Position numbers and translations under genes: made by a program. DNA of 64,000 nucleotides from IMG/VR virus record IMGVR_UViG_3300020578_000040, positions 17,367 to 81,366 of that record; one strand, 5' to 3'. Position 1 is the first letter of the stretch; every line of letters starts with the position of its first letter. The stretch comes from a virus. Of this stretch, positions 12,392-17,373 are shown piece by piece. Under the pieces are notes generated by a model. It saw nothing but the letters and a program-made list of their open reading frames with translations, was not told the DNA's origin and made no database searches.

Positions 12392-12763
12392 ATGACATTC
12401 TCACTACCTGACGATGGAGTTATTTTCGAGTTGGAGTCTGGCGAACTTTCCGCCACGGTCATCCTGGCCGGCGACATAGCAATGAAGCACGAGGCGGGCC
12501 CCATCATCCACCCTACGTTCGATAAGAAGCGCGTCATCGTGGCATTCAACGCGCGTGCCTACAAGTGGCGGATCAAGAAGTTGATCGAACACTTTCAGGA
12601 GCGCCGGCCCTGGGAGGACAAAGACACGATCCTGAAGGGATGCGTGGACGAACTGAATCGCAAGTACTTCGAACTGACGGCGGCTGCGCTTCATGACTAC
12701 TACATTCAGGAAGGCCTCGCAGGATTTGCCGATATTGATGACGATCTCGATGACCAGTCGTGA
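12392..12763 (+). CDS. hypothetical protein
   Basis: 123-aa ORF. Confidence 0.7.
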   Translation: MTFSLPDDGVIFELESGELSATVILAGDIAMKHEAGPIIHPTFDKKRVIVAFNARAYKWRIKKLIEHFQERRPWEDKDTILKGCVDELNRKYFELTAAALHDYYIQEGLAGFADIDDDLDDQS

Positions 12764-13253
12764 TAAGAATGACGGTATGCATATCGAGCCGACTACCTGG
12801 AAAGAGGCGGCCGAAACCGCAAGCGAAATCATCTTTGGATGCGTGCGTCCTCATGCGAAGGTTTCAGTGGCCGGCCTGAAGGAGCATCACGAGAAGATCA
12901 TCAATGATTTCTTCGAGAGCCCGACGACCGATTTACTGATTGCTCGATGGTCCACCCTTGGATCGATGGCGATTGAATACTCAATTCAAGATGACTCCGC
13001 GATTTCGGCAAAGACCCTGGTCACCACGCTGTGCAAGAAGCAGCACGACTATGGTCCGAACAACATCCTGCGGTTCGGGCAGAAGGGTTTAATGATTCGA
13101 GTCTGGGATAAGATTTCGCGTCTTGACAACCTCTCGACCCAGGATTACGCCCCAGAAGTCGATGAATCCAAAATTGACACATTGCTTGACATTGCCGGGT
13201 ACTCAACCATTGGTATCATGTTGAGACGAGGATGGTTCCGTCTCCCTCTCTGA
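12750..13253 (+). CDS. DUF1599 / nucleotide-modification-associated domain protein
   Basis: KKQHDYG...IRVWDKISRL...ESKIDTLLDIAGY. Confidence 0.75.
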   Translation: MTSRDKNDGMHIEPTTWKEAAETASEIIFGCVRPHAKVSVAGLKEHHEKIINDFFESPTTDLLIARWSTLGSMAIEYSIQDDSAISAKTLVTTLCKKQHDYGPNNILRFGQKGLMIRVWDKISRLDNLSTQDYAPEVDESKIDTLLDIAGYSTIGIMLRRGWFRLPL

Positions 13254-13287
13254 GGGGGCTTTCCTCCACATAAACGGAACAACGCTG

Positions 13288-13507
13288 CTCGATGCAGTGA
13301 CGGAAGGAATGGGCGGGACCGCCAGCAGCCGTCGCTAGAAGAACTGTATTGAGGACTGGTGCAACTCCAGCGCGGTCGTAAGGAAACTTAGGGACCTTAC
13401 GCCTATGGACCACGCGATCCGGTGAAAACCTCGGAAGTGATCTTTAGGATATGCCCCTTAATACCTCCAGGGTTCAACACCCTTCTGGGGGTAGGGGGGC
13501 CTATTCT
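13288..13507 (+). ncRNA. candidate structured non-coding RNA
   Basis: At least five helices with many G-U pairs and three T-loop-like hairpins (see findings). Confidence 0.5.
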
Positions 13508-13624
13508 CCCGCTCTCCGGCTCTCCCTCAGAAGTAAGCCTGGGGTGAAGGTAAAGCGAAGATCGAGCCTGGTACGGTGTAGGGTAAGAAACCCAAACAAA
13601 CTAGAGATAGGGTGGAGGCCTACT

Positions 13625-14053
13625 GTGAATGATGAAGATGAACAACTGACACTTTTTGACGATCCAAATGTTCAAAAGGTTGTTCCTGAATTGCCGGTAC
13701 AACACACCTCCGCGGAATCGCGTGCTTATGTTGCCAAGGCAAATAACGCTGAAGTTGTCGAACTGTTCCAACTTTGGCAGCAAACTCTTCACCAATCTGC
13801 GGCGTCCGGTGTTCTTCTCACGGAAAAGCGCTACGCGCGTATCGCTGCGGCGCTGTGCATTTACGGAATCGATACGTGCCGGCTCGCCATCAGGGGATGC
13901 GCGAAGTCCGGTTGGCATATGGGAGACAATCCCCGCGGCGCCAAGTACACCGATATCGATTTGATCTTCAGGTCCCATGACCACGTGCAACGGTTTGTTA
14001 GTCTGGCCCTGGGCGAGACCGACGCGGCCCGTGCGTTCATGGAGGAAGAGTGA
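13625..14053 (+). CDS. replication initiator/replisome organizer C-terminal-like domain protein
   Basis: GGAGG RBS; LT.KR...I...GWHMG.N..G.KY.DIDLIF pattern; upstream of loader and helicase. Confidence 0.6.
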   Translation: MNDEDEQLTLFDDPNVQKVVPELPVQHTSAESRAYVAKANNAEVVELFQLWQQTLHQSAASGVLLTEKRYARIAAALCIYGIDTCRLAIRGCAKSGWHMGDNPRGAKYTDIDLIFRSHDHVQRFVSLALGETDAARAFMEEE

Positions 14054-14514
14054 CCAAGGAAGAGATTGTCAAAATAGTTGACAGAGTTTGTTCCGCCTGG
14101 AACCAGAACTTGGTCATGTCGGCCAAGAAGGAAATGTACGAGACTTGGTATCACGTACTCCAGGACATCGACGGCGTCAATGTTTTGCGCGTAATTGACG
14201 ATCTCATTATCGAGGATGAGCGCTTCATGCCGCGCGTAGGCACGGTGCGCAAAAGAGTCCTCATTCAGAAGATCGAAGCCCCGCTGGAGCCCATCATCGC
14301 GTGGCAGCAGTTCCGTTCGATAGCAGACTCTGCGGGAGCCGGCGTCGAAATACTTGACATGCATCCCCTGGTTCGTGTAACTTTGAACCGCCTTGGCGGC
14401 ACGAGCGCGTTCGGCCTCCACACCAACGGGGATCGCGAATCGTTTCTCTCTGTGTACAGGCTCGTCGTAGCAGAATGGGAGAGGGAGCACTATGGCATCA
14501 ACCGAGGTCGATAA
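14050..14514 (+). CDS. replicative helicase loader/inhibitor-like protein
   Basis: MTKEE...W...L.D......V...I...ERFMP.V pattern (G39P-like); gene context. Confidence 0.65.
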   Translation: MTKEEIVKIVDRVCSAWNQNLVMSAKKEMYETWYHVLQDIDGVNVLRVIDDLIIEDERFMPRVGTVRKRVLIQKIEAPLEPIIAWQQFRSIADSAGAGVEILDMHPLVRVTLNRLGGTSAFGLHTNGDRESFLSVYRLVVAEWEREHYGINRGR

Positions 14515-16198
14515 CTTCCTGGAGCGCCTCAACGGTGTGCGTAAGGACGGCTCAGGATGGATGGCCAGGTGCCCATGCCGGGATGACGACAAGAATCCCT
14601 CGATGCACATTGCCGAGGGGGGCGACGGCCGCGTGCTCGTCACGTGCCACCGGGGGACGCCCTGCTCCCTCGATCAGATTTGCGCTGCGGTGGGGCTCGA
14701 TGTCAAGGACCTGATGCCGCCGCGCAAGGAGAAGGACGAAGAGCCGCGCCTTACCCTTGTCAAGGCTTACAACTACTACGACCAGAACGGGGAGATGCTG
14801 TTCCAGAAGCAGCGCTTCGTTGATCAGTTCGGCAAGAAGACATTCCGCCAGCGCAAGCCAGACGGCCGCGGCGGGTGGACATACTCACTGGGATCAACGC
14901 CCAAGGTTCTGTACAACCTGCCGGCAGTTGTCCAGGCAGCGGCCAACGGTGGGCATATATGGGTCGTTGAGGGCGAGAAGGATGCCGATGCTGTCAACGA
15001 AACCGGTGAAGTCGCAACGACGATGCCCAACGGTGCGGGCTCATGGCAGCGGATTCACACCGAAGCCCTGGCCGGCGCATCAGTCACGATTATTGCTGAC
15101 AACGATAAGACAGGACTCGAACATGCGGCTCACGTGTTTCGCGAACTTCAGGCCGCCGGCTGCGAAGTCGAGGCATTCCGGCCGCCGGATAACGCCAAGG
15201 ATGTGGCCGAACTTCTGGGAAGAGGAGAGCCACTCGCCAACCTTATCCCCTACAACCCGCTAGAAGAATCTCCTGAACCGATCCAGGAGCGCGACGAGTT
15301 CGCAGAACTGATCGACGGTTTGCATAAGTTGCACGACAATCAGCGGCTGACAATCCAGCAGAAGTTGACCCGGGCCCGCAACGCGATCGATCGCATCCAG
15401 TTCGATGACGAAGGGTTCTACGACTCAGGGACCCTGGTCGACTGGGCGGAGTTCATCGCTGAAAGTGTTGACGAGGATTATGACTGGGTCATCCCGGGCG
15501 CGCTCGAGCGCAGCGAGCGGGTGATTGTGGTGGCGGCCGAAGGTGTAGGCAAGACGATGCTGGCCCGCCAGGTGGCGATCATGTCCGCTGCCGGCATTCA
15601 GCCATTCACCTGGGGCCGGATGAAGCCGATCAGAACTTTGACGATTGACCTCGAAAACCCCGCACGCATCATCCGGCGCACATCATCCAAGATCATGCGG
15701 GCGGCACAAGAGCGGGCCCGCTCCACCAAGATCGAGGCGCATCTCCTCATCAAGCCCGCCGGCCTTGACCTACTCAACTCCCAGGACAGGATTCTGGTCG
15801 AGGACGTCATCGAGCGCACCAGGCCTGAACTGATCTGCCTGGGCCCGCTGTACAAAGCGTTCGTTGATCCAGGCTCACGAACCAGCGAATCGATCGCCAT
15901 CGAGGTGGCGAAGTACCTGGACTCGATCCGCACGCACTACAAGTGCGCCCTATGGCTGGAACATCACGCACCTTTGGGGTCATCGGTAGGCGGAAGAGAC
16001 CTGCGGCCCTTCGGCTCCGCGGTCTGGTCGCGCTGGCCTGAATTCGGATTGGCATTAGAGCCTGATCCAGTGGCTACCGAGAGGTATACTTATATTGTCA
16101 AAAACTTCCGAGGCGGGCGCGATGTTCGTAACTGGCCGCGGAGGATGCAGCGAGACGAGTTGTTCCCCTTCAGAGTCATCGAGTTCCGGGAGCCGTAA
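14492..16198 (+). CDS. DNA primase-helicase (Zn finger + TOPRIM + RepA/AAA_25 helicase)
   Basis: CPCRDD...CHRG..C; VVEGEKDAD; ADND; AAEGVGKT; IDLEN; LEHH. Confidence 0.9.
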   Translation: MASTEVDNFLERLNGVRKDGSGWMARCPCRDDDKNPSMHIAEGGDGRVLVTCHRGTPCSLDQICAAVGLDVKDLMPPRKEKDEEPRLTLVKAYNYYDQNGEMLFQKQRFVDQFGKKTFRQRKPDGRGGWTYSLGSTPKVLYNLPAVVQAAANGGHIWVVEGEKDADAVNETGEVATTMPNGAGSWQRIHTEALAGASVTIIADNDKTGLEHAAHVFRELQAAGCEVEAFRPPDNAKDVAELLGRGEPLANLIPYNPLEESPEPIQERDEFAELIDGLHKLHDNQRLTIQQKLTRARNAIDRIQFDDEGFYDSGTLVDWAEFIAESVDEDYDWVIPGALERSERVIVVAAEGVGKTMLARQVAIMSAAGIQPFTWGRMKPIRTLTIDLENPARIIRRTSSKIMRAAQERARSTKIEAHLLIKPAGLDLLNSQDRILVEDVIERTRPELICLGPLYKAFVDPGSRTSESIAIEVAKYLDSIRTHYKCALWLEHHAPLGSSVGGRDLRPFGSAVWSRWPEFGLALEPDPVATERYTYIVKNFRGGRDVRNWPRRMQRDELFPFRVIEFREP

Positions 16199-17212: not shown

Positions 17213-17373
17213 ATCGCCCCGGCCGCAAGCCAACCAACAACCCAACGCTGACAATCAAACTGACGCCGAAGATTAAGCGACATCTTATTGAGGTTGCCAG
17301 CCTTAACGACATGTCGATCACCGAGTACCTGGTGACGCTGATCGAGCGCGACGCCGGCCAGTCACTACAGTAA
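17209..17373 (+). CDS. ribbon-helix-helix protein (54 aa, not in ORF track)
   Basis: PGRKP...LTIKL...KRHL...A....MSITEYLVTLIERD. Confidence 0.75.
   Translation: MNRPGRKPTNNPTLTIKLTPKIKRHLIEVASLNDMSITEYLVTLIERDAGQSLQ

Follow-up and report, generated by a model that had tools for sequence, protein, structure and literature searches.

A conserved structured RNA upstream of phage replication genes that very probably represents an uncatalogued family

The intergenic locus and its fold

The DNA considered here, referred to as the window, is a stretch of 64,000 nucleotides taken from the IMG/VR virus record IMGVR_UViG_3300020578_000040 (positions 17,367 to 81,366), an 81-kb record that is about 54% complete. 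The virus is an uncultured lake phage, and the same DNA is carried by many lake-water metagenomes. The stretch at 13288-13507, in which the original prediction had placed a candidate structured noncoding RNA directly upstream of the replication operon, is located inside a 371-nt gap (13254-13624) between two plus-strand genes. A DUF1599/NMAD1-like gene (12693-13253, plus strand) directly precedes the gap, and the first gene of the replication module (13625-14053, plus strand), which has a GTG start, follows it. The product of the latter, a protein of 142 aa, corresponds to the C-terminal part of O-like initiator profiles only, as seen in its match to phrog_16167 (E 3.6e-13, profile positions 174-267 of 315). 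Next in order are a G39P-like helicase loader (14050-14514) and a Toprim/AAA primase/helicase (14492-16198). Since an initiator-like gene, a helicase loader, and a primase/helicase lie downstream, the replication-operon context that had been assigned to the stretch is correct.

The conserved element is longer than the flagged stretch and extends from about 13254 to 13538. Between it and the 142-aa gene lies a poorly conserved spacer (13537-13624, plus strand) that ends in a conserved ribosome-binding region, with GGAGG at 13614-13618, six bases before the GTG; conservation in the spacer is confined to its last 33 nt (91%). A protein-coding reading was considered and rejected, as the open reading frame at 13422-13547 and the extension of the 13625 gene from 13451 both cross non-triplet indels and the unconserved spacer, and no conserved open reading frame was found in the element or spacer region among relatives. 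The non-triplet indels and the unconserved spacer together indicate that the stretch is non-coding. A promoter-like site, TTGCCG-16-TGgTATCAT, is located on the plus strand at 13192-13219, in the 3' end of the upstream gene, and is a possible, weak candidate for the transcript start; it represents the sole sigma-70-like match in 12900-13800, where 0.9 matches are expected from shuffles.

The element, all of whose features are given for the plus strand, begins with a 5' lead-in containing CCUCCACAUA (13254-13287), which is nearly invariant in the window and in the related sequences L044, L043, and L084. Helix H1, consisting of 11 bp (13288-13298/13343-13353), encloses helix H2 (GACGG/CCGTC, 13299-13303/13329-13333), a purine box, CGGAAGGAAUGGG (13301-13313), and helix H3 (GGCG/CGCC, 13312-13315/13320-13323); H2 and H3 hardly vary. 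Next to H1 is a hairpin resembling the T-arm of tRNA, CUGG-UGCAACU-CCAG (13356-13370), which is invariant in the relatives found via a flanking protein. Helix H5 (CGCGGUC/GACCACGCG, 13371-13377/13408-13416) is lineage-specific, its 3' arm being missing in L043 and L084, and encloses helix H6 (CGTAAGG/CCTTACG, 13377-13383/13395-13401), whose loop carries a conserved AGGGA. The variable hairpin H7 (TCCG..CGGA, then AGUGAUCUUU, 13418-13435) is terminator-like by a simple scan. Its place is taken in each lineage by a hairpin of unrelated sequence (TCCG/CGGA, ACGC/GCGT, GAGT/GCTC, or ATGA/TCAT), and the U-tract following it is not retained in L044. A long terminal hairpin, H8 (13446-13507), combines a pyrimidine-rich 5' strand bearing ACCUCC with a G-rich 3' strand in which the G motif GGGGGUAGGGGGG (13487-13499) is found. 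Two copies of a direct repeat that co-vary with each other, X1 (GGAAGUGA, 13433-13440) and X2 (AGAAGUAA, 13529-13536), complete the element.

The minimum-free-energy fold of the window stretch recovers most of these helices. Folding z-scores amount to -1.31 (371 nt) and -1.87 (226 nt) for the plus strand, and to -0.52 (371 nt) and -1.85 (226 nt) for the minus strand; folding stability alone is not beyond chance and is similar on both strands.

Conservation and covariation among close relatives

A search with the upstream protein identified four viral contigs (L002-L005) with the same gene order as the window, and in these related phage contigs the element is better conserved than any flanking gene. 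The element of L045 shares 89.9% nucleotide identity with that of the window, compared with 79, 74, 86, and 85% for the genes, while the corresponding values for L043 are 82% for the element and 66-82% for the genes. Base pairing was scored for H1, H2, H3, the T hairpin, H6, and H8 in alignment A8, which consists of five sequences, including L084 and the distant L079. Within this alignment, 86.4% of the cells pair, compared with 42-52% when the partners are slid, and ten pairs change on both sides, compared with 3-4 when slid and 4.1 when shuffled. This comparison of homologues shows that the helices are not a product of chance and supports the proposal that the stretch encodes a structured noncoding RNA.

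Individual substitutions follow the same pattern. H1 exhibits a change from C-G to U-A at 13290/13351 and from U-A to C-G at 13293/13348, in addition to changes from G-U to G-C, and the T-arm hairpin shows a swap from U-A to C-G in L079. The H6 pairing GUAAGG/CCUUAC is replaced by GCAAGG/CCUUGC and by ACAAGG/CCUUGU. At the base of H8, U-A is swapped to A-U (13450/13503), and many changes from C-G to U-G are distributed along the hairpin, whose apical cap is variable, with GGGT-TCAAC-ACCC being replaced by GGC-CUCGUU-GCC in relatives. All the helices that had been predicted from the window are found where they were placed, and H1, H2, H3, the T hairpin, H6, and H8 pair in relatives as well, whereas H5 and the sequence of the GGGT cap are not conserved. 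In the four close sequences, G-U combinations number 23 and A-C combinations 3. This excess assigns the fold to the plus strand and is in keeping with an RNA, and the earlier interpretation of G-U imperfections as a plus-strand RNA signature is thereby confirmed.

The window class comprises only 4-5 distinct sequences, and further scans yielded no more. The window-class pattern CGGAAGGAATGGGNGGGACC retrieved only the four known viral contigs, along with four chance matches in MAG coding DNA, and no pattern match was obtained when the replication-initiator protein was used as a probe of viral contigs. L049, a relative by its primase/helicase (57% identity), carries no such element. RNAalifold, applied to four sequences, returned a different long-range fold with little covariation, which was not adopted.

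The wider RNA family and its relation to known RNAs

Two strings are invariant in the protein-anchored relatives L002-L005, namely GGTGCAACTCC and GGGGTAGGGGGG, with the second motif also written as GGGGTAGGGGG. A search for both motifs separated by a gap of 100-130 nt detected the pair in 98 metagenome stretches, 47 IMG/VR contigs, and 5 GTDB MAG contigs, one of the last being a chance match and four being kept. The further phage and metagenome copies number about 140, with 112-120 distinct sequences, and come from lake, marine, soil, and sludge samples. Because both motifs are fixed by the search, their conservation is independently demonstrated only by L002-L005; the invariance of the T-arm in these contigs does not depend on the motif search, as they were found through the flanking protein.

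The architecture of the main family, which is about 250 nt in length, was derived manually from an alignment of 22 sequences (A4) and is common to most of the copies collected. At the 5' end, the loop of helix a (3 bp) pairs downstream as helix b, forming pseudoknot 1, and the joint GAUAGCAAG is located after a/b. The loop of hairpin c pairs with a strand, d', after the A-rich linker GGAAGAAAA, forming pseudoknot 2. Helix e encloses a variable hairpin and the T-arm, and the interleaved helices f and g constitute pseudoknot 3, into which a hairpin is inserted. Hairpin i follows f/g, and in the terminal hairpin k a pyrimidine strand pairs with the G motif, which is paired with an upstream strand in this manner in 105 of the 112 distinct copies. 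A total of 88.4% of the cells of A4 are paired, compared with 65.8% after shuffling, and the covariation score is 0.593, compared with 0.189 shuffled and about 0.1 slid. Changes on both sides occur in 26 of 34 pairs, and one of the pseudoknots exhibits full strand swaps (ACCC/GGGU, ACCGU/GCGGU, and AGGUU/GACCU).

A covariance model, R1, which represents only the 5' two-thirds of the main-family RNA, recognizes about 70 loci at E<1e-5 and also found a second copy in L139. The pattern GGCTGGTCG N{8,12} AAGCC, which has a mismatched spacer (the true spacer being 7), gave 15 matches; these are attributed to chance, as none of them matches R1. The RNA is rare in bacterial genomes, being present in 1 of 151 genomes in the order of the L053 genome (a Pusillimonas MAG), which is the starting genome itself, and the flanking proteins of L053 show no detectable relation to those of the window. 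Three family members, L173, L191, and L192, are found in IMG/VR records whose identifiers look like those of isolate genomes, in which the records may represent prophages.

The direct repeat is also a feature of the main family, in which the first copy of the word, 7-10 nt in length, immediately precedes hairpin k and the second is located 5-9 nt beyond the G motif. The two copies share at least 7 nt in 76 of 111 members, compared with a shuffled mean of 4.9, and the word differs between phages (GGGTGAA, GGTGATCC, CGAGGAACCA, TGCGATCCCC, GGCTGCA, and others). Within the window class, the words are GAAGUGA/GAAGUAA in the window and L044, GGUAGUGA/GGUAGUAA in L043, and GGUAGUAA/GGUAGUUA in L084, and the second copy is situated farther out, at about 30 nt compared with 5-9. 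Only two copies of the X word occur per locus, with none elsewhere; no complementary partner was found within the RNA, and X2 is rarely a ribosome-binding site. Co-variation in the form of a direct repeat suggests that both sites are used by a single reader that evolves along with them, possibly a protein dimer bound to the RNA or an initiator bound to the DNA. Such a repeat is unusual for an RNA and provides a handle for finding the partner, whether an RNA-reading protein or a DNA-reading initiator.

The relation of the window copy to the main family is revealed by shared modules. When R1 is applied to the window, only the T-arm is matched (13 nt, about 10 bits, namely 10.1, E 0.4), and the same is true of L043, L044, L056, L074, and L134; the three pseudoknots (a/b, c-loop/d', and f/g) and the e helix, as captured by R1, are absent from the window match. 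The window copy is accordingly filed as a remodelled variant and not as a standard member. It nevertheless carries the T-arm GGUGCAACUCC (13358-13368) and, after a gap of 119 nt, GGGUAGGGGG (13487-13499), paired in H8, as well as the purine box CGGAAG.AA.GGG, which reads CGGAAGGAATGGG in the window (13301-13313) and CGGAAGAAAAGGG in the main family. The features common to both thus include the T-arm, the purine box, the terminal G-rich hairpin, a CCUCCAC 5' segment, and the flanking direct repeat, along with a same-strand position directly upstream of replication genes. The window lead-in, with its CCUCCACAUA, resembles the ACUCCAC 5' strand of main-family pseudoknot 1 when L059 is compared by eye, and may be homologous to it. 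Another connection is provided by L065, where a main-family RNA precedes a homologue of the 142-aa gene of the window (33% identity, E 1e-11). The RNAs of L065 and the window share the 16-mer CGTAAGGAAACTTAG, which forms the hairpin inserted in pseudoknot 3 in L065 and the 5' arm and loop of H6 in the window. From these shared modules and the synteny, we infer that the window class may descend from the main family, with nested helices having taken over from a lost e helix and f/g pseudoknot.

Searches against known families are in agreement with the original prediction, which had not recognized the family. With Rfam 15, no match was obtained at gathering thresholds for the whole window or for five main-family loci, and a search of 13100-13750 at E<=10 returned chance-level matches only. 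ARAGORN detected no tRNA or tmRNA in the window (0) and none overlapping the element in 32 family loci. In a blastn search of 50,697 GenBank phage records, the window element was unmatched, as were two family members. No description of this RNA family was found in the literature. A survey by Fremin et al. (2023; PMC10690425) reported 8,495 unnamed covarying RNA candidates from IMG/VR, the same database as the contig studied here; its text describes no such RNA, and the family may well be among those candidates. The element very probably constitutes a genuine structured RNA that is conserved and belongs to a phage family not yet catalogued.

The closest likeness to a known RNA is found in the T-arm. 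This segment, GGUGCAACUCC, with its 7-nt loop UGCAACU, matches letter for letter the consensus of RF00233, the tRNA-like 3' UTR element of tymoviruses, pomoviruses, and furoviruses; the consensus T-arm of RF00233 is GGGGUGCAACUCCCc, and the window carries cuGGUGCAACUCCag at 13356-13370. Three loops had been said to resemble T-loops, and the idea was right for one of them, since GGGGUGCAACUCCCc, the RF00233 consensus T-arm, is the invariant motif of the family; the loop concerned, GGTGCAACTCC, is invariant, whereas the other two vary. In main-family members, as in RF00233, hairpins precede the T-arm. The best main-family member reaches 22.2 bits against RF00233 (E 0.013 in a 351-nt search), compared with a gathering threshold of 40, and the window copy gives no match. 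Furthermore, the phage RNA differs from RF00233 in having neither a 3'-terminal ACCA nor a pseudoknotted acceptor stem, with the AcCa of the model aligning to AUCG, and in being internal to a DNA phage genome, whereas RF00233 forms the 3' end of plant RNA viruses. On sequence grounds, the resemblance is probably limited to one motif. The bacterial Y RNA YrlA (PMC4201824) likewise combines a tRNA-like T-arm with other helices in a noncoding RNA, and some bacterial Y RNAs are phage-encoded. The phage RNA differs from these in that it has no Rfam match, no rsr/Ro60 gene is seen nearby, and its T-loop has G at the universal pseudouridine position.

Expression and possible functions

Information on transcription can be drawn from the family as a whole. 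The AT-rich (marine) members possess near-consensus sigma-70 promoters whose ends are located 5 nt upstream of the first helix. Intrinsic terminators are present between the RNA and the next gene in 2-3 of 76-78 members, as rarely as in control windows, and upstream of the RNA in 9 of 76 members; no conserved alternative pairing of the terminator/antiterminator type was found. Genes of the primase/helicase or initiator type are the most frequent ones downstream. Among 79 first downstream genes, 14 code for a primase/helicase or for DnaB, and initiator or primosomal PHROG families, which overlap, each account for 4-5 of the 79, with more primase and helicase genes at downstream positions 2-3. 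A few loci have an HNH or small-terminase gene downstream instead of replication genes.

Two freshwater metatranscriptomes from different studies contain one short contig each, of 187 and 261 nt and derived from a relative that is 90-95% identical to the window, covering 13248-13417 (together with 19 letters of an L044-type hairpin) and 13196-13457, respectively, and nothing else in 12800-14200. A stable, abundant RNA would be expected to yield such coverage, restricted to the element and seen in both studies; the evidence consists of assembled contigs, which do not show strand or ends and in which DNA carry-over is possible. Both contigs end 1-22 nt after H7 and before H8. As these ends fall just after the terminator-like H7, the major RNA species may end before H8.

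Folded RNAs are already known, as a kind of element, to precede phage replication genes, and the present family is absent from Rfam 15 and from the literature found. The operators of T4 gene 32 and gene 43 and the leader pseudoknots of IncFII/IncB repA are folded RNAs situated between a promoter and replication genes, where they set expression. The phage RNA resembles them in position and orientation and has no sequence or structural similarity to them; it is also much larger, with about 250 nt and three pseudoknots in the main family. To our knowledge, no antisense RNA or autoregulatory protein is associated with this phage RNA, unlike the leaders of replication genes.

The reading that we favor, tentatively, is that of a cis-acting leader or operator of the replication operon, to which the position, the orientation, the promoter placement, and the lack of a terminator point when taken together; its transcript ends, cis action, and partner are putative. 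In such a mechanism, the promoter-proximal leader of the operon would consist of a structured plus-strand RNA measuring some 250-290 nt (about 13254-13538). Members of the family have in common the T-arm GGUGCAACUCC, the purine box, a terminal hairpin in which an ACCUCC-like strand pairs with GGGGUAGGGGG, and two copies of the X word flanking that hairpin. The folded domain and the twin X sites would act as a cis-acting operator that binds a factor, which may be a phage protein, a host protein, or a tRNA-recognizing component of the host, and the bound factor would set the transcription or translation that reaches the initiator, loader, and primase/helicase genes. The weak promoter match in the window and the members that precede HNH or terminase genes argue against this reading, and no alternative-pairing switch, ligand, or partner protein was identified. 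The activities suggested in the original prediction (replication control, riboswitch, or ribozyme) are conjectural.

Promoter-driven structured transcripts are also known beside replication functions, as exemplified by the ColE1 RNA II pre-primer and T4 oriF/oriG, and it is possible, if rather unlikely, that the RNA is an origin-associated transcript of this type, which would activate or prime a phage origin through a G-rich RNA-DNA hybrid, with X1 and X2 serving as DNA iterons. The element adjoins initiator, loader, and primase/helicase genes, and in the small initiator-like proteins the similarity to O-type profiles is confined to the C-terminal part, which binds partners. The repeats, alike within a phage and different between phages, are iteron-like in 76 of 111 members and in the window class too; on the other side, only two short copies (7-10 nt) are present per locus. 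The G-run motif GGGGUAGGGGG, invariant in the four protein-found relatives and elsewhere part of the search pattern, could stabilize an RNA-DNA hybrid as in the ColE1 and T4 transcripts, yet it is normally sequestered in a hairpin, and there is no homology to those transcripts. Moreover, an origin transcript has no need for three covarying pseudoknots, a T-arm, and conserved purine-rich junctions, no AT-rich unwinding element adjoins the RNA in the window, and the members located before terminase or HNH genes do not fit. A trans-acting role, which we consider unlikely, would make the RNA a tRNA mimic acting on host machinery that recognizes the tRNA elbow (RNase P, tRNA-modifying or CCA-adding enzymes, the ribosome, or anticodon-nuclease defenses), or on the ribosome through segments resembling Shine-Dalgarno and anti-Shine-Dalgarno sequences. 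The identity of the T-arm with the tymovirus tRNA-like consensus and the 22.2 bits of a main-family member against RF00233 are in its favor, as are the complex pseudoknot-rich fold, typical of RNP or ribozyme-class RNAs, the RNA-library contigs covering the element only, and the ACCUCC on the 5' strand of the terminal hairpin. Several X words (GGUGAUCC, AAGGAG, and GGUGA) additionally fit the complement of the 16S 3' tail and speak for the same reading. The RF00233 score nevertheless falls far below the gathering value of 40 with the window copy unmatched, ARAGORN detects nothing at the element in 32 loci, neither a 3' CCA nor an acceptor-like end is present, and the RNAs of the family do not carry their own terminator; action in cis is also suggested by the strict placement and orientation ahead of a single set of genes.

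Two further explanations carry much less weight. The strand-specific structure beside primase/helicase genes could suggest a single-stranded DNA signal for priming or primosome assembly, similar to G4-type origins and plasmid ssi/sso sites, formed in the displaced plus strand and read by the primase/helicase, and roles in single-stranded DNA have reportedly been proposed by Weinberg and colleagues (Weinberg et al., in 2017) for several phage-associated motifs. This is very unlikely, given that G-U (G-T) wobbles are frequent, with 23 in the window class, that the T-loop, pseudoknots, and conserved purine junctions are typical of RNA, that the promoters of AT-rich members are placed exactly at the 5' end, and that RNA-library contigs cover the element. 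Hardly credible is the absence of any function, in which case the helices would be chance hairpins in a GC-rich spacer or remnants of a decayed gene: the folding z-scores, not significant and similar on both strands, would permit it, but the element is conserved above the flanking genes and shows compensatory changes, about 140 relatives display strong covariation, and the stretch contains non-triplet indels and no conserved open reading frame.

A more speculative proposal, which we regard as improbable, combines the RNA with the initiator. The small O-type fragment, which is without the usual DNA-binding half, would bind a tRNA-like pseudoknotted RNA at the twin, phage-specific X sites, and the resulting complex would mark the origin or open it. 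If true, initiation in a double-stranded DNA phage would depend on an RNA, which is reminiscent of the "genomic tag" idea, according to which tRNA-like structures flag genomes for replication.

The family is both large and intricate, comprising three covarying pseudoknots, a tRNA-type arm, and a G-rich hairpin, and its T-arm represents a second, independent example of the tymovirus type of tRNA mimic. Experiments would be feasible if the records containing L173, L191, and L192 are isolate genomes. If the RNA controls or joins the start of phage replication, as a leader or otherwise, a layer of RNA would be added to a process that is regarded as protein-driven in these phages.

A direct repeat flanking the terminal hairpin

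Across the whole RNA family, the terminal G-rich hairpin is flanked by a short word whose two copies (13433-13440 and 13529-13536 in the window) co-vary as a direct repeat rather than as complements, as exemplified in the main family by L181, L169, and L115. Each locus carries two copies only, and no complementary partner of the word was found within the RNA. The repeat could provide two sites for a single co-evolving protein, or it could represent origin iterons. Several of these words, such as GGUGAUCC and AAGGAG, resemble Shine-Dalgarno variants. The terminal hairpin's pyrimidine strand (window 13462-13469, corresponding to the 5' strand of hairpin k elsewhere in the family) frequently includes ACCUCC or CCUCCU, the core of the 3' tail of 16S rRNA.

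A possible alternative pairing and the T-arm

Within window 13485-13528, the G motif of the terminal hairpin has a possible alternative partner in a downstream pyrimidine-rich run, GCUCUCCGGCUCUCCC, and a chance Rfam match to mir-6794 draws precisely the hairpin that this pairing would form. Since the run is not conserved in L043, a related phage contig, the alternative pairing is not counted as a switch. The family T-arm matches every letter of the consensus T-arm of RF00233, the tymovirus tRNA-like structures, at L197:1552-1622 (= L050), although the model as a whole scores only 22.2 bits there, below the threshold of 40.

Downstream proteins and genomic settings

The small proteins encoded 3' of the RNA and resembling replication initiators (window 13625-14053; L120:5461-5940; L043:471-926) match PHROG initiator profiles only over the C-terminal 80-120 positions, for example positions 174-267 of 315. 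The N-terminal half, which normally binds the origin, appears to be missing from them.

One metagenome contig, L139, carries the main-family RNA twice (L139:211-394 and L139:945-1070), the copies lying approximately 0.7 kb apart; the second, detected by the covariance model alone, extends past the contig end. The IMG/VR record identifiers of three family members, L173, L191, and L192 (2778260959, 2728369401, and 2884190451), resemble those of isolate genomes, and these members are therefore probably prophages of cultured bacteria, in which case their hosts would be usable experimentally.
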